DNA of 64,000 nucleotides, from the NCBI GenBank assembly GCA_037440225.1, contig JBBIUN010000013.1:10936-74935 (forward strand), read 5' to 3'. Shown here in pieces: positions 31,214 through 64,000 of this stretch (positions are counted from its first letter, which is position 1; each line of letters opens with the position of its first letter). The notes under the pieces were generated by a model. That model did not search any database. It was not told the origin of the DNA and was given only the letters and a program-made list of their open reading frames with translations. Source of the DNA: Gemmatimonadota bacterium. GTDB taxonomy: Bacteria > Gemmatimonadota > Gemmatimonadetes > Gemmatimonadales > GWC2-71-9. Made by a program: the position numbers and the translations under genes.

Positions 31214-31285
31214 ACCGGCCCCCAACGTATCTCGGCGCTCTTTGGCGAAACCGTGAGACGCGGATGAAGCGCCCCACAAGCGTCT

Positions 31286-34477: not shown

Positions 34478-34639
34478 CGGCGGTTGCTCTCCGTGCTCAG
34501 GAACAGGATGCGGGTACGTACGCGCGTACCGGCGTCGGCCCCCGCTGGCCGACGCCGTCGCTCCCGAATGGTCCGATACGGCACGACGGGCAGCAAGGCC
34601 AAAGTCCCAACGAAGCATAGGCTGGCAGCACTGCGGCAG

Positions 34640-48515: not shown

Positions 48516-48519
48516 GTCG

Positions 48520-48535
48520 GCGCGGCATACCGCGC
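48520..48535 (+). terminator. Hairpin GCGCGG-CATA-CCGCGC 5 nt after the stop codon
   Basis: Read directly. There is no U-tract. Confidence 0.3.
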
Positions 48536-49066
48536 GCACCACGCTACGGCGTGACCGCGAGGCCGCGAGCGCAAGCCGGCACCGCAGGCACCGGCAACTC
48601 GCTCCATCGGCCCGCGGGACAACACGGCCCCCTGAGCGGTGCGACTGCCCCGGGGGCCGCGGGGGGAAGGACTCCGACGGCTTGGCACCCTGGAGGGCGC
48701 CGGATGGCCCGGTCGTAGGACCCCATGCCCGCGTCCCCACAACCGGCTCACCCTGGTGCGCGGGAGTTTCTCGCGGGATGGGCGGCGGCTCGCGCCACGT
48801 TCTCCCGCCTGCGGCCCCCGCTCCGGAACCAGATGGCTCCGGCGGCGCTCGGAGAACGCCGGCCTCTCCCCCGAAAGGCGTTACCCGCAGTGAGTCGCCA
48901 CATCCGTGGCGGCTAGCCCCAACCCTGCGGCGGAGCCCCTGAAGCCATGCTGAACCCGGCGTGAATCCCGCCTCTCAAGGCCCGTTCACCTGGGCTTCAC
49001 CGGAGCTTTAGCCAACACCGGTCACTATCGGGGCACGACGCTGGGCTCCTGCAAGCGAGGCCGCCG

Positions 49067-49996
49067 ATGAGCTGGACCCCTATCGTGGTGGGCGTGGACC
49101 AGTCGCCCCAAGCCGCGGCAGCGGCGGCCTTCGCCTGGGAGCTGGCCCAGATCGCCAAAGCGGAGTGCTACTTCGTGCACGGCACGCGCCCGATGTTCAC
49201 CTCCACGGCGGCGGTCGAGTTCGTGGCGGATGTGGACGCGTTGCTGGAGCAGCAGGTGGACGCCGCCCGGATGGGCGTGGCGGCGGCGCTGGAGCGCGCC
49301 CTGCCTGCCGAAGCGCTTAGCCGGCTCGAGGTCCGGCTGGGTCGCGGCGCCGCGGTCATCACGGAGGTCGCCCGCGAACGCGGGGCGGCGCTGATCGTGC
49401 TGGGGGGCAAGCACCACTCCGCCTTGGGGCGCTGGATGGGGGGCAGCACCGCTCATCATGTGGTGCGCGCCACCGACGTCCCGCTGCTGGTCACGGGCGA
49501 GCATCCCGGCCCGATGCGCCGGGTCCTGGTGGCGGCCGATCTGTCGTACGCGGTGAAGCCCACGTGCGAGGCGGCGCTCCGGCTGGCAGAGGTACTGGGG
49601 GCCCAAGTCCGCGTGCTCCACGCCATCGAGCCGGTGCCCATTTTGGCGGAGATGCCGCTGGTGTTCGACGAGGAAGCCTTCTACCGGGACTCCGAGGAGC
49701 AGTTCGGCAGGTACGTCGAGCCCATCGTCGCCGGCTCGCCGGCGGAGACCGTTGCCCGCCGCGGGCCGGCAGCCGAGGTCATCGCGCAGGAAGTGCGCGA
49801 GTGGGGAGCGGACCTCGTGGCCGTGGGCTCCCACGGGAAGGGCTGGATGGACCGACTGCTGCTGGGGAGCACCACCGAGCGCCTGCTCGATCAGCTCCCC
49901 TCGTCGCTGCTGGTGGTGCCGGTGCGGGCTCCTCCCGGCGAGACCGGGCGCAGGTACCGCGGCGCGCCGGCGCTGCAGCGCTCGCCGGTGAGCTGA
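49067..49996 (+). CDS. Tandem-domain universal stress protein
   Basis: Two UspA-like halves (IVVGVDQSPQ...LIVLGGKHH and VLVAADLSYA...LVAVGSHGKG...SSLLVVP). Confidence 0.85.
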   Translation: MSWTPIVVGVDQSPQAAAAAAFAWELAQIAKAECYFVHGTRPMFTSTAAVEFVADVDALLEQQVDAARMGVAAALERALPAEALSRLEVRLGRGAAVITEVARERGAALIVLGGKHHSALGRWMGGSTAHHVVRATDVPLLVTGEHPGPMRRVLVAADLSYAVKPTCEAALRLAEVLGAQVRVLHAIEPVPILAEMPLVFDEEAFYRDSEEQFGRYVEPIVAGSPAETVARRGPAAEVIAQEVREWGADLVAVGSHGKGWMDRLLLGSTTERLLDQLPSSLLVVPVRAPPGETGRRYRGAPALQRSPVS

Positions 49997-50074
49997 TGGG
50001 GAACGAGCGGCGGCCCTGCCCGCTTCCGGGGCCGCGGCTCCAACGTTCGCCGACGGGCGGATTGGGGGGTCGTC

Positions 50075-50476
50075 GTGAAGGTTCGGGATCTCATGCAAAC
50101 CGATCTCAAAACCGTGACCCCGGACACCACGGTGGCCGAGGCGGTGCTCCTGCTCTCGGAAAACCACGTGTCCGGGGTGCCGGTGGTAGACGCTCGGAGC
50201 CGGGTCGTTGGCGTCCTGACGACCACCGATGTGCTCAACGCCGCCGCCGAGACGGCGGGATCCGAGGATCGCGAGCGCCTGTTCGAAGCCACCCGGGTCG
50301 AGGAGATCATGACGCCGCGGCCGATCACCATCAGCCCGGACAGCGACGTCAAGGAAGCCGCACAGCAAATGCTGTATCTTGAAGTGCATCGCCTGTTCGT
50401 GGAAGCGGACGGGCGGCTGGTGGGCGTGATTTCGCAAAGCGATATTGTTCGAGCCGTGGCCTTAGCGAGGATCTGA
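50075..50476 (+). CDS. CBS domain pair protein
   Basis: 133 aa with two CBS repeats (VSGVPVVD... and HRLFVEADGRLVGVISQSDIV). Its TGA overlaps the next ATG (ATGA). Confidence 0.85.
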   Translation: MKVRDLMQTDLKTVTPDTTVAEAVLLLSENHVSGVPVVDARSRVVGVLTTTDVLNAAAETAGSEDRERLFEATRVEEIMTPRPITISPDSDVKEAAQQMLYLEVHRLFVEADGRLVGVISQSDIVRAVALARI

Positions 50477-50616
50477 TGAGCCACCAAGACCCGAGCCTCG
50501 GCAATCATCCCCGGGGCACCCTAGCCATCGTCGGCCTGTACGGTCTCCTGTTCGCCATAGGCTGGCTGGCGTTTTTCTTCTTCATCTATCTCCCGCGCGG
50601 GGCCGTGACCCCGTAG
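50476..50616 (+). CDS. cbaD: ba3-type cytochrome c oxidase subunit IIa (46 aa; below the ORF-track length cutoff)
   Basis: My translation is MSHQDPSLGNHPRGTLAIVGLYGLLFAIGWLAFFFFIYLPRGAVTP*. It forms a single TM helix with the PxG(A/T)LA...RG pattern of Thermus subunit IIa. Position is directly 5' of subunit II. Confidence 0.7.
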   Translation: MSHQDPSLGNHPRGTLAIVGLYGLLFAIGWLAFFFFIYLPRGAVTP

Positions 50617-50623
50617 GACTGCC

Positions 50624-51100
50624 ATGTACATCGATCGCTACGAGCGTTTCTGGATGTGGAGCGCAGGCGTCATCTGCGCCGCCTTCTTCGGCGCCATCGT
50701 GATGGGTTTGGTCACCCAGGGCACCCGCCCGCCCAGCCACGTGGAAACCATTGACCCCAAGGGCGTTTGGACCGACGCCCGGTTCGCCGAGCGCGGCGTG
50801 CGCGTGAACTCCGACGGCAGCGTCACGGTGACCGCCGTCGCCATGATGTTCGCCTTCCAGCCCAACGAGATCCGCGTACCCGCCGGACGCCCCGTTACCT
50901 TCCGGCTGGCCAGTCCGGACGTGGTGCACGGGTTCGAGATCGTGGGTAGCAACGCCAACACCATGGTCATCCCCGGTTACGTGAGCCAGTTCACCACCAC
51001 CTTCACCACCCCGGGCGAGTATCTCATCGTCTGCAACGAGTACTGCGGCCTGGGCCATCACTCGATGATGGGCAAGCTCATCGTGGAGGAGGTGCCATGA
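50624..51100 (+). CDS. cbaB: ba3-type cytochrome c oxidase subunit II (CuA cupredoxin)
   Basis: CuA site HGF...CNEYCGLGHHSM. One N-terminal TM helix. Confidence 0.9.
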   Translation: MYIDRYERFWMWSAGVICAAFFGAIVMGLVTQGTRPPSHVETIDPKGVWTDARFAERGVRVNSDGSVTVTAVAMMFAFQPNEIRVPAGRPVTFRLASPDVVHGFEIVGSNANTMVIPGYVSQFTTTFTTPGEYLIVCNEYCGLGHHSMMGKLIVEEVP

Positions 51101-52719
51101 ACACCGAACGCCGCTTGGCCACCGCCAACATCGGGATCGCCGTCGCCGCCTTCGGGGTGGCAGCGGCCATGGCCCTGATGCAGGCGGTCTCCCGCGCCAA
51201 TCTCGACCTGCCCTGGCGGTCTCCCAAGATGTACTACCTCTCGGTGACCGCCCACGGCGTCCTGATGGCGCTGGTGTTCACCACCTTCTTCATCATGGGC
51301 CTGGGGATCGCACTCACTACCCACGGCCTCGGCCGGCCGCTCCGCTGGCCGCGGATCGGCTGGGCCTCGTTCTGGGTGGCCGTGGCCGGGACGCTGGCTG
51401 CGCTCTGGGCGATTTTCTGGGGCAAGGCCACGGTACTCTACACCTTCTACCCCCCACTCCAGGCCCACCCCGCGTTCTACATCGGCTTGACGCTCCTGGT
51501 GGTGGGCTCGTGGGTGTGGAGCGCAGTGATCGTCGCGACCTACCGCGCCTGGCGGGCCGAGCATCGCGAGCAACCCGTCCCGCTGGCGGTCTTCGGGATG
51601 CTCGCCACGATCATCGTCTGGCTGCTGGCCACGATCGGCGTGGCGGCGGAGATGTTGTTCCAGCTCATCCCGTGGTCCTTAGGGCTCACCCGCACCGTAG
51701 ACCCGTTGCTGGCACGCATGCTGTTTTGGTTTTTCGGCCACCCGCTGGTCTATTTCTGGTTGCTGCCGGCCTACGTGATCTGGTACACCGTGCTCCCCAA
51801 GGCCGCGGGCGGCAAGCTCTTCAGCGACCCGCTGGGCCGCATGGTGTTCGCCTTGTTCATCATCCTGTCCACGCCGGTAGGGTTCCATCACCAGTTCATG
51901 GACCCTGGCATCGCTTCGGGCTGGAAGCTGTTGCACACCTTCAACACGCTGGGCATCCTGTTTCCCAGCTTCGTGACCGCGTTCACGGTGGTGGCCTCGC
52001 TGGAGATCGCCGGCCGTGCTCGCGGCGCCACCGGCTGGTTCGATTGGCTCGGTAAGCTCCCCTGGGGCGATCCCTTGGTCGCTTCCGTCCTGCTGAGCAT
52101 GCTGTTGTTCGCGGTGGGCGGCTTCGGCGGCGCGATCAACGCCGCCTACGGCATGAACTCCATGGTTCATAACACCGCCTGGGTCCAGGGTCACTTCCAC
52201 CTTACCGTGGGAAGCGCCGTCGCGCTCACCTTCATGGGCACGGCTTACTGGCTGGTGCCCAAGCTGGTGGGCCGGGAGCTGGAACTGGCCCTCCTCGCCA
52301 AGGTGCAGCCCTATCTCTGGTTCGCAGGCATGATGCTCTTTTCGATCGCCAACCACGTGACCGGCTTGATGGGCATGCCCCGGCGCATCTACGACCCGAC
52401 CTACCTCGGCAGCACGGTCGCGGAGCGATGGGGCGGCCTCACCGCGCTCTCCGCGCTGGGGGGCGTCTTTCTCTTCGCCAGCGCCACCTTTTTCCTCTTG
52501 GTGATGCTGGGAACGGTGCTCGCCGGGCGCCCCACCACGGATACCGCCATCAGCTTCGCCGAGCCGCTGGAGGGTGAGCCGGCCAAGCGCCTGGTCTTCG
52601 ACCGGCTGGGACTCTGGATCACGGTGGCTGTCGTGCTGGTCTTGATCGCCTACGCCTATCCCCTAGCCGACCACCTCAGCATGACGACCTACGGCTCCCC
52701 CGGCTTCAAGCCGTTCTGA
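51097..52719 (+). CDS. cbaA: ba3-type (B-family) cytochrome c oxidase subunit I
   Basis: 540 aa and polytopic, with FFGHPLVYFWLLP and HHQF motifs. Overlaps subunit II by ATGA. Confidence 0.9.
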   Translation: MNTERRLATANIGIAVAAFGVAAAMALMQAVSRANLDLPWRSPKMYYLSVTAHGVLMALVFTTFFIMGLGIALTTHGLGRPLRWPRIGWASFWVAVAGTLAALWAIFWGKATVLYTFYPPLQAHPAFYIGLTLLVVGSWVWSAVIVATYRAWRAEHREQPVPLAVFGMLATIIVWLLATIGVAAEMLFQLIPWSLGLTRTVDPLLARMLFWFFGHPLVYFWLLPAYVIWYTVLPKAAGGKLFSDPLGRMVFALFIILSTPVGFHHQFMDPGIASGWKLLHTFNTLGILFPSFVTAFTVVASLEIAGRARGATGWFDWLGKLPWGDPLVASVLLSMLLFAVGGFGGAINAAYGMNSMVHNTAWVQGHFHLTVGSAVALTFMGTAYWLVPKLVGRELELALLAKVQPYLWFAGMMLFSIANHVTGLMGMPRRIYDPTYLGSTVAERWGGLTALSALGGVFLFASATFFLLVMLGTVLAGRPTTDTAISFAEPLEGEPAKRLVFDRLGLWITVAVVLVLIAYAYPLADHLSMTTYGSPGFKPF

Positions 52720-52819
52720 GTTGGGCGCCGCGTGGCGGGAGCCGGCGCGACCGACCGGCCTCGCGCGGAGCGTGGCGCGGAAAACCTCCGCCGCCGCGCT
52801 CTCGCTATCTGCGCCCTGA

Positions 52820-53554
52820 TCAGCGGCCGAGATACTGCTGAAACACCACCATGCCCACCAGCGTCAAGCACACCGCCAGTGCTACGCCCGCGCGACGCGC
52901 CTGGTCGTACGCTTCCGGCAGCAACTCCACCAGCACCATGAAGACCATGGCCCCGGCCGCGAAGCCGATGCCGTAGGGCAAGGCCGGAGCCACAGCTTCC
53001 ACGAAGAGGAACGCCGGCACCGCCATCAGCGGCTGCGGCAGGGACGAAACCACGCTCCAGGCCGCGCACCCGGCGACCCCCACGCCCCGCGGGTAGAGCA
53101 CCGCACTGATCGCCAAGCCCTCCGGCACGTTGTGCACCGCGATGGCGATAGCGATGGCCGCGGCCAGCGAAACGCTCCCGCCGAAGGCCACGCCGACCGC
53201 GACGCCTTCCGAGAAGGAGTGCACCGTCATCACGACCATCATGAGCAGCACCCGCCGGGCGCCTCCGCGCCCGGCGGCGGCCCACCGCAACTGGCATGTC
53301 GCCAGGAGCCGCTGCGTCGCCAGAATGAACAGCACGCCTGCCGTGGCCCCGACGACGGTCTCCCCGGCGCCGTGCCGCGTCCCCTCGGCCACGAGCCCAA
53401 AACTTGCGCCGAGCATGAGACCCGACGCCACGGCGTTGGCCCACGCCACCCCCGCCGGCGAGACGGTACGGACCAAAGCGAAGGGCAAAGCGCCCAAGCC
53501 CGTCGCGGCCGCGGTGAGCAGGGCGTACCAGAACACCAGCGCCGCGTCGGGCAC
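52820..53554 (-). CDS. ZIP-family divalent metal transporter
   Basis: Carries HSFSEGVAVG and AIAVHNVPEGLA. GTG start directly follows the upstream TGA. Confidence 0.85.
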   Translation of the reverse strand: MPDAALVFWYALLTAAATGLGALPFALVRTVSPAGVAWANAVASGLMLGASFGLVAEGTRHGAGETVVGATAGVLFILATQRLLATCQLRWAAAGRGGARRVLLMMVVMTVHSFSEGVAVGVAFGGSVSLAAAIAIAIAVHNVPEGLAISAVLYPRGVGVAGCAAWSVVSSLPQPLMAVPAFLFVEAVAPALPYGIGFAAGAMVFMVLVELLPEAYDQARRAGVALAVCLTLVGMVVFQQYLGR

Positions 53555-54283
53555 TCAGCGAACTCCGCTCGCCAGCACCACGATCCCCATAGCCAGAATC
53601 GCCACCAGGGCGACGCTGGTGGGCCCCGCCTGCCGATAACAGTGCGGCAGCAGCTCAGCCATCACCAAGTAGACCAGGGCCCCTACCGCCACGCCCAACA
53701 CCCACCCGACCAGCGCCGGAGCGGCGGACAGCACAGCGAACGTGGTGACGGCCAGCAGCACCTGGCTGACCCGCGTCGCGCCGGCCGCCGCCACGGCCCC
53801 GCCCAAACCTAGCCCCCGGCTGTGCAGCACCGTCGCAAGGACCGCCACTTCGGCCACGTTGTGGACTGCGATCGCCGAGGCCATGAGCAACCCCAACGCG
53901 GGCGCCAACACCATGGCCACCCCGATCGCGATCCCTTCGGGCGCCGTGTGCAGCATGTTGACCAACAGCAACTGGTAGCCGTAGTCCGGGGCCGTCTCGC
54001 CCAAGCGATTCAAATCCAGCTCCTGCATACCCGCCGCCCGGTGCACCCAGTACAGGAACCCGATGCCCGCCGCTGCCCCCACGGCCGCCCGAGCAGGCGC
54101 CGGCCCGAGACCTGCGGCCATCAGGAGATACGCCCCGCCCAACATCAACCCAGCCGCCACCCCGTTGGCCCAGCCCAGCCAGGACGCCGGCAATCGGCGC
54201 CGGAACGCCACCGGTATGGCGGCCAAGCCCGCAGCAGCCATGGCAACACTCGCATAGGCCAGCACCGCCAGCGTGGGGTGCAC
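53555..54283 (-). CDS. ZIP-family divalent metal transporter (divergent paralog)
   Basis: Carries HTAPEGIAIG and AIAVHNVAEVAV. The second metal motif is degenerate. Confidence 0.8.
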   Translation of the reverse strand: MHPTLAVLAYASVAMAAAGLAAIPVAFRRRLPASWLGWANGVAAGLMLGGAYLLMAAGLGPAPARAAVGAAAGIGFLYWVHRAAGMQELDLNRLGETAPDYGYQLLLVNMLHTAPEGIAIGVAMVLAPALGLLMASAIAVHNVAEVAVLATVLHSRGLGLGGAVAAAGATRVSQVLLAVTTFAVLSAAPALVGWVLGVAVGALVYLVMAELLPHCYRQAGPTSVALVAILAMGIVVLASGVR

Positions 54284-54402
54284 GGCTCGCCTCCTGGACG
54301 CCCCGGCTGCCAGTATACCACGCGCGCGGCCAAGCCGTCACCCACGCGGCGTCCCAGGGACTGGCAAGCCGGCTTGACCGGCTGGGCGGCACCCCTGGGC
54401 TC

Positions 54403-55716
54403 GTGCCTGCACCCATCCGCCCTAGCGGCGCCGGCGGATGGCGCGCTACGTTTGAGCTGGGAAGCCCTCCCGAGACCGCGACCGTGGCCGAACCGTGTAA
54501 CCCGCCAGACCGGCTCCAGCAGCGCCTGGAGCGCTTGGTTCGCGCCGGCATCCGTATCTACGCCGAGCGGGAGCTGCCAGCCGTGCTCCAACAGGTGGTG
54601 GATTCCGCGCGCGAGGTGATCGGCGCGCGGTACGCGGCACTGGGGGTGTTGAACCCGGCGGGCACCGGCTTAGGGACCTTTGTGACCAGCGGCATCAGCG
54701 CCGAGGAGCACGCCCGCATCGGCCAACCGCCTCAGGGGCACGGCATCCTGGGCCTGCTCATCCGCGATCCCAAGCCCTTGCGGCTCGCCAATCTCACCTG
54801 CCACCCGAGCTTTCACGGGTTTCCTCCCCACCATCCCCGCATGCGCTCGTTCCTGGGCGTCCCCGTGGTGGGGCGCCAAGGGCCCATCGGCAACCTCTAC
54901 CTCGCAGAGAAGCTGGGTGCGGAGGAATTCAGCGCTGAAGACGAGAGCATCGCGGTGATGCTGGCGGCCCAGGCGGCGGTGGCGGTGGAAAACGTGCGGC
55001 TTATCGAAGAGACCCAGCGCCTGCTGGGGGACCTCCGCTCCATGCAGCGGGCGCGGGATCGCTTCTACGCCATGATCAACCACGAGTTGCGCAATGCGCT
55101 CACCGCGGTGTACGGGTGGGCCGATCTGCTCATCCGGCGCGGAACCGAGGGCCTGCCCCGCGCCGCCATCGAAGTGTACGAATCGGCCGAACGCACCCTG
55201 ACGCTGCTCAACGACCTCCTCGACTTGAGCCGCCTCGATGCCGCGCAGCTGGTGCCCGTAGTTCGAGAAACCAACGCCCGCGACGTCATCGGCGAAGCCA
55301 TCCGAGCGGTGCTGCCCGCCGCCGAAGCCCGCCAGGTCCGCATCGAGACCGTGGCCAAAGACGGCGAGCTGCTCTGCCGCACCGACCCGGTCCGGGTCCG
55401 GCAAATCATGATCAACCTGCTCTCCAACGCCGTCCGACACAGCCCCACGGGCGAGACCGTCCGCGTCGAGGTCAAGGACAGCGAGTCCCGGCTCCGCATT
55501 GACGTGGTGGACTGCGGCGAAGGCTTGAGCCCCGAGGAGCAGGCCATCATCTTCGATGCCTTCGTGCGAGCCGGCTCCGAACACGAACGGGGCACCGGCT
55601 TGGGGCTCACCCTGTCCCGCCAGCTCGCCCGACTGCTGGGCGGGGACCTCAAGGTCGAGAGCCAGAAGGGAGCCGGCGCTCGCTTCATCCTGGATGTCGC
55701 CCGGTTTCTGAGCTAG
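54403..55716 (+). CDS. GAF-domain sensor histidine kinase (cytoplasmic)
   Basis: GAF region (ARYAALGVLN...FLGVPV...GNLYLAEK), H-box INHELRNALTAV and GTGLGL. Start uncertain (alternative GTG 54484). Confidence 0.85.
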   Translation: MPAPIRPSGAGGWRATFELGSPPETATVAEPCNPPDRLQQRLERLVRAGIRIYAERELPAVLQQVVDSAREVIGARYAALGVLNPAGTGLGTFVTSGISAEEHARIGQPPQGHGILGLLIRDPKPLRLANLTCHPSFHGFPPHHPRMRSFLGVPVVGRQGPIGNLYLAEKLGAEEFSAEDESIAVMLAAQAAVAVENVRLIEETQRLLGDLRSMQRARDRFYAMINHELRNALTAVYGWADLLIRRGTEGLPRAAIEVYESAERTLTLLNDLLDLSRLDAAQLVPVVRETNARDVIGEAIRAVLPAAEARQVRIETVAKDGELLCRTDPVRVRQIMINLLSNAVRHSPTGETVRVEVKDSESRLRIDVVDCGEGLSPEEQAIIFDAFVRAGSEHERGTGLGLTLSRQLARLLGGDLKVESQKGAGARFILDVARFLS

Positions 55717-55779
55717 ACTTAAAGAAGCCTTCATTCGAAGTTCAGGCACCAGTCACCAAAACGGCGATACGGTTCGGCC

Positions 55780-56466
55780 ATGAAGATCCTGGTAGTCGAG
55801 GACGACCGCAAAGTCGCCGGATTCATCGAACAAGGCCTGCGGGAGGAAGGCTACGCCGTGGACGTCGCCCGTGACGGGGACGAGGCGACCACCTTGGCCC
55901 ACGTCAACGACTACGACGCCATCCTGCTGGACCTGATGCTCCCCAAGAAAAACGGCCTCCAGGTCGCCTCCGAATTGCGGCGGGAGGGCCGCCGCACGCC
56001 GATCCTCATGCTCACCGCCCGGGACTCCACCGAAGACGTGGTCCGGGGACTGGATGCCGGTGCGGACGACTACCTTGCCAAACCGTTCAAGTTCGACGAA
56101 CTGCTAGCCCGCTTGCGGGCTTTGACCCGCCGGGGCGGGGCCGCCAGACTCGACCGCCTGTCCTACGGGCCTCTCGAGCTCGACCGCCTGCGCCACAAAG
56201 CCCGCGCCGCCGGGCACGTGCTCGATCTCACCCCCCGGGAGTTCCAACTCCTGGAACACTTCATGCTGCACCCGGAAGAGGTCATCCGCCGGACCGAACT
56301 CCTGGAAAAGGTCTGGGACATGCACTTCGACCCCGAAAGCAACGTGGTGGACGTCCACGTCGGCAACCTGCGGCGCAAGCTCCGGGAAGCCGGCTGCGAT
56401 GGACTGATCCAAACGGTGCGGGGGGTCGGCTTCTGCCTCAAGAGCCCTGAGGCCGCTGACGCCTGA
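55780..56466 (+). CDS. OmpR-family response regulator (CusR/CopR-like)
   Basis: Carries MKILVVEDD...ILLDLMLP and a winged-helix C-terminus (LTPREFQLLEHFM...VRGVGF). Confidence 0.9.
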   Translation: MKILVVEDDRKVAGFIEQGLREEGYAVDVARDGDEATTLAHVNDYDAILLDLMLPKKNGLQVASELRREGRRTPILMLTARDSTEDVVRGLDAGADDYLAKPFKFDELLARLRALTRRGGAARLDRLSYGPLELDRLRHKARAAGHVLDLTPREFQLLEHFMLHPEEVIRRTELLEKVWDMHFDPESNVVDVHVGNLRRKLREAGCDGLIQTVRGVGFCLKSPEAADA

Positions 56467-57854
56467 TGTTTTCGCTGCGCCGCACCCTGGCGGTGCGGTT
56501 CTCCCTTACCATCTTTGCTGCCCTGCTGCTGATCGCGCTCTGGGCGTTCTTGGGCGCCCAGCACACCTTGCGCCAGCAGCTCGATAACGGCCTCAACAGC
56601 GCTCTCAACCTGGAACGCGACGTGCTGGCCTCCGGCAGCTCCCTGCCCCCCCACCCCGGCCCGGTGGATTTCGAGAGCTTTGTCCAACACCTGAACCGCT
56701 TCGTTGTGGTGCGGGACACCCACGGCAACATCCTGGACATGAACACCGCCCTGGCCGGCGATCTCCCCTTGGACTCGAGCGCCTTCGCCGCCGCCCTGGC
56801 CGGCCGTACCGTTTGGGCGACCCATCGCTGGGGCGATCAGTGGATCCGCTCCGTCTATGCCCCCGCGCCAGCCGCCAGCCCCCCCGGCATGCGCGTGGTG
56901 CAGGTCACCGCCTCGCTCAGCCAGCTCGAACGCGAAAACCGCGAGGTCTTGTTCTTGCTGTTGGGCACCGTCCTGTTGAGCACCGTGGCCACCGCCTTCG
57001 GCGCCCTGTGGCTGGCCGGCTCGGCCGTGCGCCCCGTCACCGAGATCACCGAGCAGGCCCAGCGGATCGGCCCGCGCGTGGCGGGCCAGCGCATCACCGC
57101 GCATGCCGACGTCGCCGAGTTCCAGGGCCTGGTCAAGGTGCTCAACTCGATGCTGGAACGCCTGGATCGCGCCTTCGAAACGCAACGCCGCATCATCGCC
57201 GACGTGGCCCACGACCTGCGCACGCCGATCACGGCCGTTCAGGGCGAACTGGAGGTCGCCCTGCGCGGGCAGCGAAGTCCGGAACAGTACCGGGTCGCCC
57301 TGACCAGCATCCTGGAAAGTGTCGAGCACTTGAGCAGCATCAACGAGGCGCTTATCCTTCTCGCCCGAATCGAGGCCGGCGAGCTTCGGCCCCAGCCCGC
57401 CCGGGTGGACCTTGCCCTGCTCGCGGCCGCCGCCGTCCAGCGGGTGCATCCCCGTGCCGGGGGCCGCCCGCTTCACTTCCAGCGCGTAGGCGACGGAGAC
57501 ACCACCGTATGGGCCGATCCCGCGATGATCGGAGTCATGCTGGATCAACTGCTCGATAACGCCGTACGCCATACGCCGCCCGAGACCCGGGTCGAAACCC
57601 TGGTCACCGGCAATCACGGCCAGGTCACCGTCGCCGTGCGGGACAACGGGCCTGGGATCCCGCCCGAAGTCCTGCCCTATCTGTTCGAGCGCTTCTACCG
57701 AGCCGATCCGGCCCGCTCCCGTACCGCCGGGCCCGGCCTGGGCCTCACCGTTGCGGCCGCCATCGCAGACGCTCATCACGGCGCCATCCGCGCGCACAAT
57801 CTGCCCTCGGGCGGGCTCGAGGTCGCCGTGACCCTCCCCACCGGATCCGCCTGA
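56466..57854 (+). CDS. Membrane sensor histidine kinase (CusS-like: 2 TM, HAMP, HisKA, HATPase)
   Basis: H-box VAHDLRTPITAV, plus DNGPGI and GPGLGL. ATG overlaps the regulator stop (TGATG). Confidence 0.9.
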   Translation: MFSLRRTLAVRFSLTIFAALLLIALWAFLGAQHTLRQQLDNGLNSALNLERDVLASGSSLPPHPGPVDFESFVQHLNRFVVVRDTHGNILDMNTALAGDLPLDSSAFAAALAGRTVWATHRWGDQWIRSVYAPAPAASPPGMRVVQVTASLSQLERENREVLFLLLGTVLLSTVATAFGALWLAGSAVRPVTEITEQAQRIGPRVAGQRITAHADVAEFQGLVKVLNSMLERLDRAFETQRRIIADVAHDLRTPITAVQGELEVALRGQRSPEQYRVALTSILESVEHLSSINEALILLARIEAGELRPQPARVDLALLAAAAVQRVHPRAGGRPLHFQRVGDGDTTVWADPAMIGVMLDQLLDNAVRHTPPETRVETLVTGNHGQVTVAVRDNGPGIPPEVLPYLFERFYRADPARSRTAGPGLGLTVAAAIADAHHGAIRAHNLPSGGLEVAVTLPTGSA

Positions 57855-58091
57855 GTGGACCTTCACCGCCTGTTCCGATCGCTTTCATCGCTTTGCCGCG
57901 AGCTTGTTCCCCCGCATACGGACACCGGAAATTCGCATGCCGGCCAACGTGGGAAGGACGGACGCGGCGGTGATCTTGGCGGGAACCGCCGTGACCCGCG
58001 TCTGCCCGCTGTGGTCCCTGCTCCACGTCAATACCTCTCGCACTTCGTCTAGACAACCCGGAGATCGAACGAAAGGAACGCAACGCGCTTT

Positions 58092-59306
58092 ATGACGATG
58101 AACACGCTGCGCTCCGGTCTGGCTGCGCTCGCCGGCGCCCTGGCCCTCGCGGTCTCGAACGTACGGCCCGCCCCGGCCATCCCGGCCTTCGCCCGGCGCT
58201 ACCACGTCAGTTGCCAGTTGTGCCACAACCCCATCCCCAAGCTCACCGCCTTCGGGGAACGGTTCGCCGCCAACGGGTATCGCTTCGCTCCTGGAGAACA
58301 ACCCCGGGACTCCGCCGGCACCGGGGACTCGCTCCTGGTGCTGCTGGGCCAGCTTCCCCTGGCCGTCCGCCTGGACGCCTACGCCCAGGCCTACGCCAAC
58401 GGCCGAGCGGCGACGGACCTCGAGCTTCCCTACAGCCTCAAGCTGTTGAGTGGGGGCTCGATCTCCGGCGACCTGTCGTACTACCTCTACTTCTTCTTGT
58501 TCGAACGCGGCGAGGTGGGAGGCATCGAGGACGCGTTCGTGTACCTGAACGATGTGGCCGGCACGCCGGTGGACGTCGCGGTGGGTCAGTTCCAGGTGTC
58601 GGACCCGCTCTTCAAGCGGGAACTGCGGCTCGAGTACCAAGATTATGCCGTCTACCGCACCCGCGTGGGCAGCCAGCCCGCCGACTTCACCTACGATCGC
58701 GGCATCCTGGTGAGCGCCGACGTGGCCGGATTCACCGCCTCCGCCCTCGTGGTCAACGGCAACGGCCGGGGTCCTGCCGGAGGCAACCGCCGGCTCGATG
58801 ACGACCCCAACAAGAACTTCATGGGTTACCTCACCCGCGACCTGGCCAAGGGACTGCGCCTGGGTGCACTAGGGTACTACGGGCGCCAACAAGGTGCTGC
58901 AGCCGCCGGCCCTCTGGTCACTAACCGGATCCGGATGTGGGGAGCCGACGCTACCCTAGAGGCCGGACCCGTTGAACTGAACGGCCAGTTCATTTGGCGA
59001 GAAGACGACAAACCCACCTTCAACCCCGGCGAGCCTAAGACCATTACGAAGGGAGGCTTTGGCGAACTCATCTTCCGGCCTCGCGGCAACCGCTGGTACG
59101 CCGTGGGCCTCTACAACCTCGTCAAGGCCGACCGCCCGCTCCTCGACCCGAGGCTGGGCGGGCCCGCCAACATCGCCCGCTACGAAACCGTGACCGCGGG
59201 CTTGGGATACCTGCTGCGACGCAACGCTCGTGTCTTCGCCGAAGGCACCTGGGATCGCCAAGCGCAAAGTACCGCTTGGACGGTCGGCCTGGTGACGGCC
59301 TTCTAG
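58092..59306 (+). CDS. Outer-membrane beta-barrel protein with one N-terminal CXXCH haem motif (Cyc2-like fused cytochrome-porin candidate)
   Basis: Signal peptide, then FARRYHVSCQLCHNPIPKLTAFGERFAANGY (CXXCH at 58212-58226). About 350 aa follow with alternating beta-strand-like pattern, ending in the aromatic terminus ...WTVGLVTAF. Confidence 0.75.
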   Translation: MTMNTLRSGLAALAGALALAVSNVRPAPAIPAFARRYHVSCQLCHNPIPKLTAFGERFAANGYRFAPGEQPRDSAGTGDSLLVLLGQLPLAVRLDAYAQAYANGRAATDLELPYSLKLLSGGSISGDLSYYLYFFLFERGEVGGIEDAFVYLNDVAGTPVDVAVGQFQVSDPLFKRELRLEYQDYAVYRTRVGSQPADFTYDRGILVSADVAGFTASALVVNGNGRGPAGGNRRLDDDPNKNFMGYLTRDLAKGLRLGALGYYGRQQGAAAAGPLVTNRIRMWGADATLEAGPVELNGQFIWREDDKPTFNPGEPKTITKGGFGELIFRPRGNRWYAVGLYNLVKADRPLLDPRLGGPANIARYETVTAGLGYLLRRNARVFAEGTWDRQAQSTAWTVGLVTAF

Positions 59307-59446
59307 CGCGCCCCAGATGAGCCCAAAGAAACGGGCCAACCGCCCCTGGGGCCCTGGCCGCGCCGTCGCCCGCCCGGCACACCGTCGCCTGGTGCCGGCC
59401 TACCGGTTAACTTCCAGCCGACTACCAGACTCTTCGTGGGGGACGT

Positions 59447-59848
59447 ATGGCCGGTCGGACATCGGGCACACTAACCGTAGCAGTCCTCGCCCTGGGAGCA
59501 GGCACGTTGGCGGCACAGCAGCAAACCAGCTCGCTGCCGCCAGGAGTGACGGCCCAGATGGTCAAAGAAGGAGAGACCCTCTTCAAGGGCGCCGGGCTCT
59601 GCGCGGCATGCCACGGTCCGGACGGCAAGGGCGTACCTAACCTCGGGGCCAACCTCACCGACCAGCAATGGCTCCACAGCAAGGGCACCTACGACGACAT
59701 CGTCAAGCAGATCATGACCGGGGTCACGGCGGATAAGTCCACCACCGGAACGGTCATGCCACCCAAGGGCGGCTCCAACCTCACCGACGCCCAGGTGAAG
59801 GCCGTGGCGGCCTACGTGTGGACCTTGAGCCACCCGCCCAAAAAATAA
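59447..59848 (+). CDS. Periplasmic class I c-type cytochrome
   Basis: Signal peptide present. Haem site GAGLCAACHG, with distal Met in GTVMPPKG. Confidence 0.9.
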   Translation: MAGRTSGTLTVAVLALGAGTLAAQQQTSSLPPGVTAQMVKEGETLFKGAGLCAACHGPDGKGVPNLGANLTDQQWLHSKGTYDDIVKQIMTGVTADKSTTGTVMPPKGGSNLTDAQVKAVAAYVWTLSHPPKK

Positions 59849-59866
59849 CCGGACCGAGGGCTCGGG

Positions 59867-60493
59867 TTACCGCCAAGGCCGGGGGCCCATGTGTCCCCGC
59901 GGCACCCAGAAACGCATCCCCTGCCCGGGACGGCCGAACCACCGCTGGCGCATCGCCATCCGCCTGGCGTCCGCCCAACCCTCCAGCCGACCGCGCTGCT
60001 CGGGCGTGAGCACCGCCTTCGCTTGGGCTGCCGCGACCAGGTGCGCCAGCCTCGCGGCCTGCATCGCTTGCATCGCCGCCTGCGCGTGGCTGCGCACTTG
60101 GTTGGCGTCGGGCGCGGGCTGCTTCCAGATCTCGGCTAACTGATCCCAATGGGTCCGGGCCTCGGCGGTGGCCTTGTCAGCCGCCTGCCGGGCCTCCTGG
60201 GCCAATGCCTCCAGCCGGGAGACTTGCTCGGCGCTCAAGCCCAGCGCCTGGCGCCGAGCAATGAGCAACCGGGGAGCGTAAAACCCCGCCGCGCGGAACT
60301 CCCGCCCCGGTCCCTGCATGCCCATCATCCCGGGCATACCCATCATGCCTCCCATGCCCCTCATCCCCATGCGGGGCCCCTGGGCTGGTGCCGGCTGCGG
60401 GGGCGGAGGCTGCTGTTGCTGCTGCTGTTGCGCCGCCAGTGGCCCGGCCATCAGAACCAACGGTACCGACAACGCCAAGATCTTCGAGCCCAT
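59867..60493 (-). CDS. Spy/CpxP-family periplasmic protein with poly-Gln and Met-rich N-terminal region
   Basis: Signal peptide present. Q7 run (60410-60430) and MGMRGMGGMMGMPGMMGM (60317-60370). LTxxQ-type motifs are LSAEQ and LTPEQ. Confidence 0.8.
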   Translation of the reverse strand: MGSKILALSVPLVLMAGPLAAQQQQQQQPPPPQPAPAQGPRMGMRGMGGMMGMPGMMGMQGPGREFRAAGFYAPRLLIARRQALGLSAEQVSRLEALAQEARQAADKATAEARTHWDQLAEIWKQPAPDANQVRSHAQAAMQAMQAARLAHLVAAAQAKAVLTPEQRGRLEGWADARRMAMRQRWFGRPGQGMRFWVPRGHMGPRPWR

Positions 60494-60643
60494 AGTACCT
60501 CCCTAAGAGTGAACCTGTGCTTCGATCACGATAGACGCCGCCGGGCGCCCGGTGTTAGCCCCGGGGGATTGCCCGGCGCCAGAGGTGTGAACACATTTCC
60601 CGCCCGCCGATACCCTCACCATCCCCAAAGGAAACCACGAACC

Positions 60644-61720
60644 ATGCGCACCTTGCTAGGGACCTCCACTGCTCTTGCGTGCTTGGGCCTGGCGGGCCTC
60701 GTGACCCCCGGGTCCGCCCAGACCACGCTGCACACCCAGGCGGCCGAAATCACCCTCTCCGGCCGCATCCATACGCAGTTCAACACCACCTCGGTCGCCG
60801 CCGAGCCGGGCTCCGAGTTTCTCATCCGCCGGGCACGCCTGGATGCCACGGTCCGGGTGAACGATTTCGTGAGCGGGTTCGTGCAGCCGGAATACGGGCA
60901 GGGCAAGGTCCTGCTGCGCTTGGGATACCTGCGCCTCAACTTCCACCGGGCGCTCCATGCCACCCTGGGCCAGTTCCGCCGGCCGTTCGACGTGTTCCAG
61001 ATCACCAGCTCCACCGACATCCTGGTGGTCGAGCGCACCGGCGACCTACGCGGCGTGGATAGCTGCACCGGCATCGGGGGCTTGTGCTCCTTCAGCCGGT
61101 TCACCGAACAGCTCCAATACGGCGGGCCGGACATCGGGATCGTGCTCGACGGGACGGACGCCAAGGGCAAAGTGGCCTACTTCGTCTCCGTGGCCAACGG
61201 GACCGGGGGGAACGTAGCGGATGAAAATGGCGCCAAGTCCTTTGCCGCCCGCCTGGTCGTCTCTCCCTCACCGAGCGTGCACCTGGCAGGCAACATGGCG
61301 GTGCACGATTACCCCAACGCGATTACCCGAAAGACGGCGTACGCCACGGTGCTGGGCGCCGACGCGGAGGTCGGATCCTTCGCGCGCGGTTTTCACCTGC
61401 AAGCAGGCGCCATGACGGGCGCCAACTGGCGGTATATCTCTGGCGGCACGCCGGCCAGGTTCGCCGCCGCCCAAGTGATCGCCACCTACAGGTTCCCCAT
61501 CCACCGCGCTCCCTATGCCGAGGCCGTGGAGCCCCTGGTCCGGATCAGCTGGGGCGATCCCGACCACTCCGCCCCGCAGGACGGCGGCTGGCTGCTGACG
61601 CCAGGGCTGGTCTGGCACATTACCGGCCGCAACAAGCTCGGAGCCAACCTCGACGCGTGGCGCCCCCAGCGGGGCCCCGGTGCGTGGGGCCTCAAGCTGC
61701 AGTCGTATCTCTTCTTCTAG
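60644..61720 (+). CDS. Phosphate-selective porin O/P-like outer-membrane porin
   Basis: ATG 60644 with a signal peptide. Carries LSGRIHTQF...FLIRRARLD...LGQFRRPF and the C-terminal ...LQSYLFF. The 5' part of listed ORF 60149.. is antisense to the CpxP-like gene. Confidence 0.8.
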   Translation: MRTLLGTSTALACLGLAGLVTPGSAQTTLHTQAAEITLSGRIHTQFNTTSVAAEPGSEFLIRRARLDATVRVNDFVSGFVQPEYGQGKVLLRLGYLRLNFHRALHATLGQFRRPFDVFQITSSTDILVVERTGDLRGVDSCTGIGGLCSFSRFTEQLQYGGPDIGIVLDGTDAKGKVAYFVSVANGTGGNVADENGAKSFAARLVVSPSPSVHLAGNMAVHDYPNAITRKTAYATVLGADAEVGSFARGFHLQAGAMTGANWRYISGGTPARFAAAQVIATYRFPIHRAPYAEAVEPLVRISWGDPDHSAPQDGGWLLTPGLVWHITGRNKLGANLDAWRPQRGPGAWGLKLQSYLFF

Positions 61721-61891
61721 GTCTTGGTACGGTCTACCGGGTGGGGGTTCTCGCGATCTCTGGTAGCCGGGTTCATGGCGCACGCCAGCATGTGGCCATC
61801 GGTGATCGGCCGGGCGTCCTGGGCTGGGAGTAAAGATTTCTTACACCACTGCTCACAGCCGGTTCACCGCGCCGCGGCATGTTTGGGGCCC

Positions 61892-62359
61892 ATGAAAGCT
61901 CATATGCGTATGCGGAAATCCGAATTCGGTGCCCTGGCCCTTTGGGTAGGGGTCGCCGCCCTGTCGGCCTGCGGCGGCGAGCGGGAAGCCCGCGAACGTG
62001 AAGGCGAGGTCCCGTCGGCTGCCCGTCCACCGTCCGCGACAGCCGCCGCCCCGGCCCCGGCAGGTCCAGTGGACGAGGCCCTCGCGGAACGAGGCGAGCG
62101 CGTCTTCCAGACCAAGGGTTGTGTGGGCTGCCACACGATCGGCAAGGGGAGGCTGACCGGGCCCGACTTGAAGGGCGTCACCGAACGCCGGCCCTACGAA
62201 TGGTTCGCTCCCTGGGTCATGAATCCCGATTCCATGCTCAAGGTGGATCCGATCGCCAAGCAGCTCCTGGCCGAGTACATGACGCCCATGCTGGGCATGG
62301 GGGTCACGGCCGACGAAGCGCGGGCACTCTGGGAGTACCTGCGGCACGAATCACACTAA
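61892..62359 (+). CDS. Lipoprotein-type monohaem c-type cytochrome immediately upstream of nosZ
   Basis: MKAHMRMRKSEFGALALWVGVAALSACGG (lipobox). Haem site KGCVGCHTIG and distal Met region YMTPMLGMG. Start may be 61892, 61904 or 61910. Confidence 0.85.
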   Translation: MKAHMRMRKSEFGALALWVGVAALSACGGEREAREREGEVPSAARPPSATAAAPAPAGPVDEALAERGERVFQTKGCVGCHTIGKGRLTGPDLKGVTERRPYEWFAPWVMNPDSMLKVDPIAKQLLAEYMTPMLGMGVTADEARALWEYLRHESH

Positions 62360-62376
62360 GCATCACGGAGTCAGTC

Positions 62377-64000
62377 ATGCTCACTCGACGACGCGTACGT
62401 TGGCTGTCGCTGGCGGCCTTGGGTGCCGTGTTCGCGGCAGCCGGGCTCGAGTCCTGTGGCGGGCGAGGCGGAGCCGACATCGGCAGCATCGCCCGCGAGC
62501 GCGGCCTCACCGACGCGGATGTCGTGGCGGCGGTCAAGACCTACCAGCCCACCGGCAAGATGGACGAGTATCTCATGTTCGCCTCGGGCGGGCATTCGGG
62601 GCAGGTCTTGGTGATCGGGATCCCCTCCATGCGCCTGCTCAAGGTCATTGCCGCGTTCACGCCGGAGCCCTGGCAGGGCTATGCCACCGGCGCCGACGAG
62701 CACAAGGCCCTGATGCGCAGCGCGCGCATGGCCAACCACGATATCACGTGGGGCGACACCCACCACCCGGCGCTGTCGGAAACGGACGCCGACTACGATG
62801 GGCAGTTCCTGTTCATCAACGACAAGGCCAACCCCCGCATCGCGGTGATCGATCTGCGGGACTTCGAAACCAAGCAGATCGTCACCAACCCCAACATCGG
62901 CACGGATCATGGAGGCGCCTTTGTCACGCCCAACACCGAGTACGTGATCGAGCCGTCCCAGTACTCGGTACCGCTGTGGAAGGAGTACGCCGGGCTGGAC
63001 AGTTACCAGCAGGACTACCGTGGCCTAGTGACGTTCTGGAAGTTCGACCGCCAGCGGGGGCGCATCGCCGAGGACCAGTCGTTCTCCATCGAGCTGCCGC
63101 CCTACTGGCATGACCTTTCCGACGCCGGCAAGGGACCCTCGGCGGGCTGGGCGTTCCTCAACTCCTTCAACACCGAGATGGCCACCGGCGGCATCGAGGA
63201 GGGCAAGCCTCCCTTCGAGGCCGGCGCGTCGCAGAATGACATGGACTATCTCCATATCATCAACTGGCAGAAGGCAGCCCAGGTCGCGGCGCAACCGGGC
63301 AAGGCTCGGGCCCTGCGCGGCATGAAGGTCATTCCCTTGCAGACCGCCATTGACGAGGGGCTGGTGTACTTGGTCCCCGAGCCCAAGAGCCCGCACGGGG
63401 CGGACGTGACGCCCGACGGTGCCCGCATCGTGGTTTCCGGCAAGCTCGACCCCCACGTGACGGTCTATTCGTGGTCCAAGATCAAGGCGGCCATAGACCA
63501 GAAGCAGTTCAGCGGCAAAGACCGCTACGGCATCCCCCTGTTGGACTTCGCCTCCGTGATTGACGGGCAACTGGAACTCGGCCTGGGACCGCTCCACACC
63601 CAGTTCGACAACAACGGGAACGCCTACACCAGCCTCTTCCTCGAGACCAAGGTTGCCAAGTGGCGGCTCGACCCGCTTCAGCTGCTGGAGAAAATTGACG
63701 TGCATTACAACGTGGGGCACATTGCCGCGGCCGAAGGCGATACCAAGTCTCCGGACGGCAAGTACCTGGTCTCCCTCAACAAGTGGTCGCTGGACCGGTT
63801 CAACAACGTGGGTCCGCTGCTCCCCCAGAACTTCCAGCTCATTGACATCTCCGGCGAGCACATGCAGCGGCTCTACGACATGCCCATCGGCATCGGCGAG
63901 CCCCACTACGCCCAGATCATCAAGGCCGACAAGCTCAAGCCCTTTACCGTCTATCCCCAGATCGGCTACGACCCCGGCACCATGGGTCCCGCCCGCGACG
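62377..64000 (+). CDS. nosZ: Nitrous-oxide reductase, clade II (atypical, Sec-type); 5' 541 codons, runs off the window
   Basis: Not in the ORF track because there is no stop. My translation from ATG 62377 (GGAG SD) gives MLTRRRVRWLSLAALGAVFAAAGLESCGG...KMDEYLMFASGGHSGQVLVIGIPSMRLLKVI...WGDTHHPALSETDADYDGQFLFINDKANPRIAVIDL...PKSPHGADVTPDG...GPLHTQFD...HYNVGHIAAAEGDT...GEPHYAQI. This is the NosZ propeller with the CuZ His ligand contexts. Confidence 0.9.
   Translation, partial: MLTRRRVRWLSLAALGAVFAAAGLESCGGRGGADIGSIARERGLTDADVVAAVKTYQPTGKMDEYLMFASGGHSGQVLVIGIPSMRLLKVIAAFTPEPWQGYATGADEHKALMRSARMANHDITWGDTHHPALSETDADYDGQFLFINDKANPRIAVIDLRDFETKQIVTNPNIGTDHGGAFVTPNTEYVIEPSQYSVPLWKEYAGLDSYQQDYRGLVTFWKFDRQRGRIAEDQSFSIELPPYWHDLSDAGKGPSAGWAFLNSFNTEMATGGIEEGKPPFEAGASQNDMDYLHIINWQKAAQVAAQPGKARALRGMKVIPLQTAIDEGLVYLVPEPKSPHGADVTPDGARIVVSGKLDPHVTVYSWSKIKAAIDQKQFSGKDRYGIPLLDFASVIDGQLELGLGPLHTQFDNNGNAYTSLFLETKVAKWRLDPLQLLEKIDVHYNVGHIAAAEGDTKSPDGKYLVSLNKWSLDRFNNVGPLLPQNFQLIDISGEHMQRLYDMPIGIGEPHYAQIIKADKLKPFTVYPQIGYDPGTMGPARD

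Follow-up and report, generated by a model that had tools for sequence, protein, structure and literature searches.

In a 64,000-nucleotide stretch of DNA from a Gemmatimonadota bacterium (assembly GCA_037440225.1, contig JBBIUN010000013.1; the window hereafter), a gene for a Cyc2-family fused cytochrome-porin is located upstream of nosZ, the gene for a clade II nitrous oxide (N2O) reductase. We consider that two known modules, separately inherited, probably lie side by side at this locus, where they may share a periplasmic pool of c-type cytochromes, and that they do not form a dedicated, co-inherited pathway. One module, extending from 54.4 to 61.7 kb, would comprise a GAF-domain histidine kinase, a response regulator, a membrane kinase, Cyc2, a soluble cytochrome c of 133 amino acids (aa), a methionine (Met)-rich protein and a porin. 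The other, starting at 61.9 kb, would be a clade II nos operon encoding a lipoprotein cytochrome c as electron donor, NosZ and then a NosB-like protein and NosDFY. What was observed is which genes are present, to which families their products belong, how they are ordered and how the two modules are distributed in relatives: in the majority of these, one module is found without its counterpart, and the two are inherited independently. Whether or not nos is present, the genes for the kinases, the regulator, Cyc2 and the cytochrome c stay together as a set, which at some loci also includes those for the porin and the Met-rich protein. The Cyc2-nos arrangement is a lineage-restricted pairing of known kinds.

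Genes were checked by listing of open reading frames (ORFs), by the codon-position G+C content and by family scans against Pfam and NCBIfam; the G+C content of the window is 65-72% throughout. All eight genes that a preliminary description, made from the DNA letters alone, had named between 55780 and 64000 were found by ORFs and family scans in the order and on the strands claimed. Exactly one CXXCH motif is present in each cytochrome of this region.

On the Cyc2 side, 80 Gemmatimonadota loci from one-genome-per-species representatives were sampled, window proteins were mapped onto them, and genes were called and clustered. Loci with at least 5 kb of downstream sequence were taken as informative (n = 58), and nosZ was scored within 10 kb of Cyc2. 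At three of these species-level loci (L002, L015 and L020) nosZ was found near Cyc2, and at the remaining 55 of 58 it was absent. The preliminary description had read the neighbourhood as a route from an extracellular donor through periplasmic cytochromes to N2O and had named beforehand a lack of synteny between Cyc2 and nosZ in relatives as the observation that would speak against it; such a lack is largely what the 3/58 loci reveal. When the window species (with locus L082) and L084 are included, the number of species-level genomes with Cyc2 and nosZ in juxtaposition rises to five. In a Cyc2 tree built by neighbour joining, the nosZ-bearing loci fall into three subclades, interspersed with nosZ-less loci, and the loci bearing the regulator and kinase genes form one broad clade. 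The block GAF kinase-regulator-kinase-Cyc2 is present in about 16 loci and is often preceded by genes for Usp and CBS proteins, coxII, coxI and two ZIP transporters.

The alternative is a dedicated chain, in which Fe(II) would be oxidised at Cyc2 and the electrons would pass via the 133-aa cytochrome c and the lipoprotein cytochrome to NosZ, the whole functioning as a unit. This seems unlikely to us. Besides the absence of nosZ from most Cyc2 loci, four loci that are sister to L015 and L020 (L004, L008, L009 and L016) retain the kinases, the regulator, Cyc2, the cytochrome c and the lipoprotein cytochrome and have no downstream nosZ. Moreover, Cyc2 homologues are near-universal in the phylum and stand mostly in housekeeping contexts, with neighbours that by inspection resemble RidA, dienelactone hydrolase, peptidase, tRNA methyltransferase, thioredoxin and Cys-tRNA synthetase.

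The view from the nosZ side also argues against a dedicated chain. Eighty metagenome contigs encoding the proteins closest to the window NosZ (58-79% identity) were inspected, of which those that extend at least 4.5 kb to the upstream side of nosZ were informative (n = 35, four of them with a NosZ at least 70% identical). No Cyc2 homologue was detected on any of the 80 contigs at E-values up to 1e-3, which gives 0/35 for the informative ones and agrees with the earlier statement that a haem-porin lies outside the usual clade II cluster. Among the nine closest contigs (71-79% NosZ identity), a NosB-like gene followed nosZ in 9/9, Cyc2 was present in 0/9 and the lipoprotein cytochrome was encoded upstream in 8/9; the longer ones continued with NosD, NosF and NosY. 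Because of its position upstream of nosZ in eight of these nine, the lipoprotein cytochrome is regarded as the nos operon's own cytochrome. The closest nosZ operons thus possess their own lipoprotein cytochrome and no Cyc2.

Also, the transcriptional organisation of the window speaks for separate units. The gene for the Met-rich protein (59867-60493) is located on the minus strand between the Cyc2-cytochrome c pair and the genes for the porin, the lipoprotein cytochrome and NosZ, so that no single transcript spans both sides, and Cyc2 and cytochrome c cannot be one operon with nos. A shared regulator-binding motif was not found, which also speaks against a dedicated chain; across seven intergenic regions (5' of coxII, the gap between the ZIP and GAF kinase genes, 5' of the regulator gene, 5' of the Cyc2 gene, the gap between Cyc2 and cytochrome c genes, the gap between the Met-rich protein and porin genes, and 5' of the lipoprotein cytochrome gene) only GC-rich matches of the kind produced by chance were obtained. 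Between 57700 and 62500 a consensus scan gave no promoter-like sites and one terminator-like site versus 2.9 expected from shuffled sequences, this consensus scan being uninformative at 68% G+C.

Other observations favour a dedicated chain. The neighbourhood formed by Cyc2, cytochrome c, lipoprotein cytochrome and nosZ is uninterrupted in five species-level genomes belonging to three subclades, the barrel is a Cyc2 family member, and the lipoprotein cytochrome occurs with both partners and stays with Cyc2 after the apparent loss of nos. Directly after the lipoprotein cytochrome gene, L004 (12164-14407, minus strand) and L009 (12319-14562, minus strand) encode a protein of about 747 aa that is FeoB-like by inspection; both loci are without nosZ, and this neighbour is a weak hint at an Fe(II) theme of the Cyc2 module. 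Also, the path would be thermodynamically easy, the N2O/N2 couple being far more positive than the potential of the Cyc2 haem of about +208 mV.

Some points weigh against the explanation by two separately inherited modules. The counts given above describe nosZ adjacency at the locus only. Cyc2 proteins of different carriers of the juxtaposition are only 59-74% identical, and the arrangement therefore outlasts what would be expected of random adjacency and could reflect selection for linkage. Retention of the lipoprotein cytochrome with Cyc2 after apparent nos loss could mean that this protein is a purpose-built link. Finally, the function of divergent Cyc2 homologues is uncertain (PMC8406198). 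A version limited to one sublineage, which we judge distinctly unlikely, holds that Cyc2 and the two cytochromes, the soluble one and the lipoprotein, constitute a real path there from dissolved Fe(II) to clade II NosZ, the lipoprotein cytochrome being the link on which selection can act and which is retained with one partner or the other.

The barrel protein itself (58092-59306, plus strand; 404 aa), a putative Fe(II) oxidase, had no match in Pfam or NCBIfam. Cyc2 proteins have been defined by a signal peptide, one CXXCH motif with AXPXFAR[Q/K][T/Y] just upstream and PXL four residues downstream, a minimum length of 365 aa and a 16-strand porin domain resembling OprO/P (Keffer et al., 2021; PMC8406198). 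The N-terminus of the window protein reads MTMNTLRSGLAALAGALALAVSNVRPAPA, with a signal peptide recognised by inspection only, and is followed by the sole CXXCH of the protein, CQLCH at residues 41-45. In the motif string A-I-P-A-F-A-R-R-Y-HVS-CQLCH-NPI-P-K-L all positions agree with the definition except for an arginine at the [Q/K] position, and the C-terminal residue is phenylalanine. The relatives P0096 and P0116 read FARKY at this place and match the strict Cyc2 motif. Residues C41, C44, H45, P31, F33, R35 and the terminal phenylalanine are invariant in an alignment of 24 homologues (57-98% identity). An AlphaFold 2 (AF2) model had a mean predicted local distance difference test score (pLDDT) of 61.5 and displayed about 16-17 strands, with residues 240-400 confident and the N-terminal half unreliable. 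Foldseek searches with this model returned 16-strand porins as top matches, OprO at rank 24, although the template-modelling (TM) scores were only about 0.4.

Since the Cyc2 motifs match and Cyc2 homologues have already been reported from metagenome-assembled genomes of Gemmatimonadota, the barrel, judged from its sequence, is assigned to the known Cyc2 family of fused cytochrome-porins, and its initial description as Cyc2-like was confirmed by the published motif definition (PMC8406198). More than 4,243 homologues were found; all organism-named ones are from Gemmatimonadota, bacterium HR33 excepted, and nearly all are annotated as hypothetical proteins. Oxidation of Fe(II) has been verified for few Cyc2 members only; the Cyc2 haem has a potential of about +208 mV, and monohaem Cyc2 is predicted to oxidise dissolved Fe2+ only, not solids or electrodes (PMC8406198). 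Humics or an electrode, which had also been considered as donors at this locus, are at odds with this published view. In relatives, a YgaP-like (DUF2892) membrane protein of 73 aa is encoded between the kinase and Cyc2; in the window a shortened remnant of such a gene is found at 57937-58095 (plus strand), where tblastn with the relatives' proteins matched positions 57967-58041 at 60% identity (E 6e-7). This remnant lacks a transmembrane hairpin of about 30 aa and overlaps the Cyc2 start codon. A Cyc2 of the Gemmatimonadota type (58% identity) is also encoded in L032 (DATIYI010000023.1), a contig binned with Streptosporangiaceae (Actinomycetota), and an outer-membrane barrel in an actinomycete bin is most likely due to a binning error.

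The lipoprotein cytochrome c gene (about 61892-62359, plus strand) encodes a monohaem protein (PF00034) with the lipobox LSAC and the haem motif CVGCH; among solved structures, it is closest to cytochrome c of Rhodothermus marinus (3cp5, 68 bits). The gene ends 17 nucleotides upstream of nosZ; the GGAG noted earlier in this spacer as a Shine-Dalgarno sequence was confirmed, whereas the spacing given as 18 nucleotides was not. The protein is likely a membrane-tethered, NosC-like immediate donor to NosZ. All orthologues keep the lipobox and CXXCH. They accompany Cyc2 without nosZ in the four sister loci mentioned above (L004, L008, L009 and L016) and nosZ without Cyc2 in at least eight contigs among L087-L095, and no other gene was found with each module separately, which would fit a general carrier. 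In L091, L093, L094 and L095 the lipoprotein cytochromes carry long Met/His/Gly-rich C-terminal tails, for example GGGQMGAMHQRMHDTMHDTT, which resemble metal-binding segments; the window protein has no such tail. In L015 and L020 a regulator of the Rrf2 family, possibly of NsrR type, is encoded between the lipoprotein cytochrome and nosZ (L020 12391-12834, minus strand), in the place where the window lineage has the Met-rich protein and the porin.

The nosZ gene (62377-64000, plus strand) runs off the window end after its first 541 codons. Despite this truncation its product scored 683.6 bits with the Sec-dependent model TIGR04246 (cut-off 625), as compared to 298 bits with the TAT-type model TIGR04244, and it matched the propeller family PF18764 (nos_propeller). 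By inspection, the N-terminus of NosZ (62377-62465), MLTRRRVRWLSLAALGAVFAAAGLESCGG, contains RRR and a lipobox-like LESC and has no S/T-R-R-x-F-L-K consensus. In view of LESC, again by inspection, NosZ might be lipid-anchored.

In exact-sequence look-ups no record was obtained for the window lipoprotein cytochrome, for the barrel or for P0001, a database protein with 100% identity. A second contig, L082 (GCA_037441545.1), was reached via P0002, a 98% identical protein. It is collinear with the window from 48101 to 64000 at 97.5% nucleotide identity and is therefore attributed to the same species. Its NosZ is complete (651 aa) and includes the cupredoxin/CuA domain, and nosZ is followed by genes for a hydrophobic protein of 206 aa at the nosB position, which matched no family model, for NosD (PF05048, 138 bits), for an ABC ATPase (NosF) and for an ABC-2 permease (NosY). 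The same order of nosZ, nosB-position gene and nosDFY was found in L084/L085 (the L084 Cyc2 being 74% identical to that of the window), L002, L015, L020 and, with nosDFY on the longer contigs, L087-L095. Accessory nos genes thus continue beyond the window, as predicted, with the exception of nosL, which was likewise predicted there but not called. Within 4 kb after nosZ neither L082 nor L084 has nosL, nosG, nosH or nosC1/C2; nosY is succeeded in L082 by glnA, on the opposite strand, and in L084 by genes for a PIN/RHH toxin-antitoxin pair. As such genes vary among clade II clusters, their absence is compatible with clade II membership.

The soluble cytochrome c (59447-59848, plus strand; 133 aa) is a periplasmic class I monohaem protein (PF00034, PF13442) that resembles the C-terminal haem domain of CcoP, and it is the commonest neighbour of Cyc2 (32/82 loci). 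The Met/Gly-rich protein is a periplasmic member of the CpxP/Spy/ZraP-like group, with scores of 32.2 bits for PF07813 (LTXXQ) and 30.7 bits for PF13801 (Metal_resist), both over the cut-off. It carries the Met/Gly-rich tract MGMRGMGGMMGMPGMMGMQG, just ahead of which a run of seven glutamines and then a proline-rich stretch are found. Comparison with solved structures gave no relevant match. Homologues adjoin Cyc2 in L002, L084 and L014, the last of which is without nosZ.

The porin gene (60644-61720, plus strand) encodes an outer-membrane protein of the OprO/OprP type without a haem motif, which scored 21.3 bits with PF07396 (Porin_O_P, the phosphate-selective OprO/OprP family; cut-off 20.9); all five homologues tested also matched this family, with a best E-value of 1.3e-12. 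A descent from the Cyc2 barrel as its haem-less paralogue was considered and rejected (BLASTP E 0.47, hhalign probability 0.6%). In L026 (6281-9556), genes for Cyc2, a cytochrome c of 143 aa, an OprO/P-type porin and a cytochrome c of 150 aa follow each other with gaps of 17-23 nucleotides, and nosZ is absent; in L014 the porin and the Met-rich protein are present, again without nosZ. Because these two carry the porin without nosZ, it belongs with Cyc2 and not with the nos set. The five loci grouped with the Cyc2-side porin thus include two nosZ-less ones, a further point against a dedicated chain. With small cytochromes on both sides, the haem-less porin of L026 could represent a porin-cytochrome pair that is not fused. 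A conserved triad of barrel, cytochrome c and porin was also considered for L001 and dropped, since the 343-aa neighbour there belongs to no Pfam family and is nitroreductase-like by inspection.

Upstream of Cyc2, an OmpR-family response regulator (55780-56466, plus strand; Response_reg and Trans_reg_C) and a membrane sensor histidine kinase (56466-57854, plus strand; HAMP, HisKA and HATPase_c) are encoded with an overlap of 1 nucleotide. They are preceded by a GAF-domain histidine kinase (54403-55716, plus strand; GAF_2/GAF, HisKA and HATPase_c), which is apparently cytoplasmic and is the first of two kinases flanking a single regulator. The pair had been labelled CusR/CusS-like. This holds in so far as heavy-metal subfamilies are the best models for both proteins, cztR_silR_copR (TIGR01387) for the regulator and TIGR01386 for the membrane kinase, but not at the level of family membership, with 227.5 bits versus a cut-off of 279.2 and 230.2 bits versus a cut-off of 292.55, respectively. 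With the Cu/Ag models PRK09835 and PRK09836, regulator and kinase scored far under the cut-offs. Across 13 orthologues, not a single His, Cys or Met is conserved in the periplasmic sensor domain of the membrane kinase, and a phmmer search of the PDB with this domain at E-values up to 10 gave no relevant match, CusS included. Without such residues and without resemblance to CusS, copper-responsive control, which the preliminary description had proposed, is unsupported, and a copper reading is based on the transmitter and receiver domains only. A candidate Fe(II)-sensing RExxE motif, as in BqsS, is present as RENRE before the second transmembrane helix and was dropped, as it is not kept in orthologues. 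The regulator orthologues are 84-90% identical across about 16 loci and always located upstream of Cyc2, and GAF kinase orthologues (58-67% identical) occupy the same position in at least 13 loci. That regulator and kinase are linked so tightly and exclusively to Cyc2 suggests control of the Cyc2 module rather than of nos, and the regulator and the kinases most likely act on the adjacent Cyc2 module.

These data bear on a further explanation, according to which the locus is an island for metal homeostasis or envelope stress. The two-component system would sense periplasmic metal or stress and control the Met-rich chaperone, the porins and the ZIP transporters in order to manage Cu, Zn or Fe for the ba3 oxidase and NosZ, and the Cyc2-like protein would serve in redox handling or detoxification of metal, not in energy conservation. 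Such an island would account for the heavy-metal subfamilies among the best models, for the LTXXQ and Metal_resist domains and the Met-rich tract of a kind common in segments that bind Cu(I), for the two ZIP transporters conserved in the block, for the missing nosL next to two terminal enzymes that both need copper, and for the Met/His-rich tails of some lipoprotein cytochrome orthologues. However, regulator and kinase score under the family cut-offs, the sensor domain has neither conserved metal ligands nor similarity to CusS, the invariant CXXCH and the Cyc2-specific motif argue for a haem protein and not for a metal channel, and the Met-rich protein and the porin are absent from most regulator-kinase-Cyc2 loci. 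We regard this explanation as quite improbable.

Further upstream, the window encodes a haem-copper oxidase of the ba3 type (B family), with subunit II at 50624-51100 (plus strand; Pfam COX2) and subunit I at 51097-52719 (plus strand; Pfam COX1). Its best solved relative is the ba3 oxidase of Thermus thermophilus with 405 bits, as compared to at most 76 bits for aa3 types, and it keeps the GHPLVY motif. A Usp protein, a CBS protein and a small ORF (46 aa in L082) lie upstream; together with the oxidase they are located at 49067-49996 and 50075-52719. The Usp/CBS/ba3 oxidase block travels with the kinase-regulator-Cyc2 genes in L004, L009, L020, L082 and L084. Two divalent-metal transporters of the ZIP family (52820-53554 and 53555-54283, minus strand; PF02535 Zip, with weak NCBIfam ZupT matches) are also conserved beside the kinase-regulator-Cyc2 block. 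Electrons of the same cytochrome c pool might alternatively be drained by the ba3 oxidase.

The conserved Usp, CBS, ba3 oxidase and GAF kinase genes could also be taken as signs of an island responsive to low oxygen or NO, in which Usp, CBS, GAF kinase, high-affinity ba3 oxidase, Cyc2 and NosZ would be co-regulated by hypoxia without any exchange of electrons. The L001 locus, where Cyc2 is found among Usp, CBS and the nitroreductase-like 343-aa protein, and the Rrf2-type regulator between lipoprotein cytochrome and nosZ in L015 and L020 are in line with this. However, many Cyc2 loci are without all such neighbours, and the explanation concerns regulation only and is compatible with two modules. 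It appears highly improbable. Metal-homeostasis and low-oxygen islands are partial alternatives, mainly about regulation.

For two separately inherited modules, we infer the following electron flow, as we do the signals of the kinases and the targets of the regulator. Dissolved Fe2+ would enter the Cyc2 pore and be oxidised at the single haem. The electron would then pass from Cyc2 to the soluble cytochrome c and on to a general pool of high-potential periplasmic c-type cytochromes. From this pool it might reach O2 through the ba3-type oxidase or, via the lipoprotein cytochrome and NosZ, N2O. Because any terminal enzyme that is fed by cytochrome c can draw on the pool, a flow from Fe(II) to N2O is physically plausible; it would arise as a by-product, because the enzymes share this pool and because the genes are adjacent in one sublineage.

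In comparison with Cyc2 of iron oxidisers (Mariprofundus Cyc2PV-1 and the Acidithiobacillus ferrooxidans rus operon, cyc2-cyc1-cup-coxBACD-rus), the window protein shares a signal peptide, a single CXXCH near the N-terminus, the P-x-F-A-R and PXL motifs and apparently an OprO/P-like porin of about 16 strands, and the locus shares an adjoining gene for a periplasmic c-type cytochrome and a nearby haem-copper oxidase. In contrast, the [Q/K] position is Arg in the window protein (Lys in P0096 and P0116), and the host belongs to Gemmatimonadota, a group not known for iron oxidation. Unlike the rus operon, the window locus has neither rusticyanin nor Cup, and its oxidase is of the ba3 type, split from Cyc2 by transporters and regulators and not in one operon with it; unlike iron-oxidiser Cyc2 loci, it has a two-component system directly upstream and a nos operon directly downstream. 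A c-type cytochrome, a Sec-type NosZ, a membrane protein at the nosB position and NosD, NosF and NosY are shared with canonical clade II nos clusters, from which the locus differs by the lack of nosL, nosG, nosH and nosC1/C2 within 4 kb after nosZ in L082 and L084, by a donor of the Rhodothermus marinus type and by the Cyc2 module immediately upstream. As in MtrCAB and MtoAB/PioAB, an outer-membrane barrel and c-type cytochromes are combined in a proposed transfer of electrons across the outer membrane. However, MtrAB, MtoAB and PioAB have about 10 CXXCH motifs and a 26-strand barrel, whereas the window cytochromes have one CXXCH each and the barrels consist of 358-404 aa with about 16 strands. 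An OmpR-type regulator, a HAMP-HisKA-HATPase kinase and heavy-metal subfamilies as best-scoring models recall CusRS and CopRS, and an LTXXQ protein encoded near a two-component system recalls CpxAR-CpxP and ZraSR-ZraP; sub-cut-off scores, a sensor without conserved His, Met or Cys and the extra GAF-domain kinase before the regulator set the system apart from CusRS and CopRS.

Elsewhere in the window, at 30611-34618 (minus strand), two adjoining genes encode proteins with one CXXCH each, which are apparently unrelated to the Cyc2/nos locus; a 1110-aa product of this region scored 129 bits with the F510_1955 glycosylhydrolase family, which is under the cut-off.

Clade II nosZ genes of Gemmatimonadota have been published before, and one paper contains a genome-level suggestion that iron oxidation by sulfocyanin is linked to NosZ in this phylum. 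In the literature searched we found neither a description of Cyc2-nos synteny or of regulator, kinases, Cyc2, cytochrome c and porin as one module nor a report of Fe(II)-dependent N2O reduction through Cyc2. Organisms with clade II NosZ, Gemmatimonadota among them, are considered to be important sinks of N2O in soil and sediment, and the source of electrons for their NosZ is poorly known. Our results define the architecture of a Cyc2 module of Gemmatimonadota, in which two kinases and a regulator are combined with Cyc2 and cytochrome c and, at some loci, also with an OprO/P-type porin and an LTXXQ protein. They also point to the Rhodothermus-type lipoprotein cytochrome c as the likely donor of NosZ and a possible shared carrier. 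As genomes with Cyc2 only, with nos only and with both are now named, the coupling hypothesis becomes testable by direct comparison. If Fe(II) could drive N2O reduction via Cyc2, the cycles of iron and nitrogen would be connected in a very abundant, mostly uncultured phylum, a gene-level marker for the link between iron and N2O would be at hand, and widespread bacteria of soils and sediments could consume N2O lithotrophically with iron as donor.

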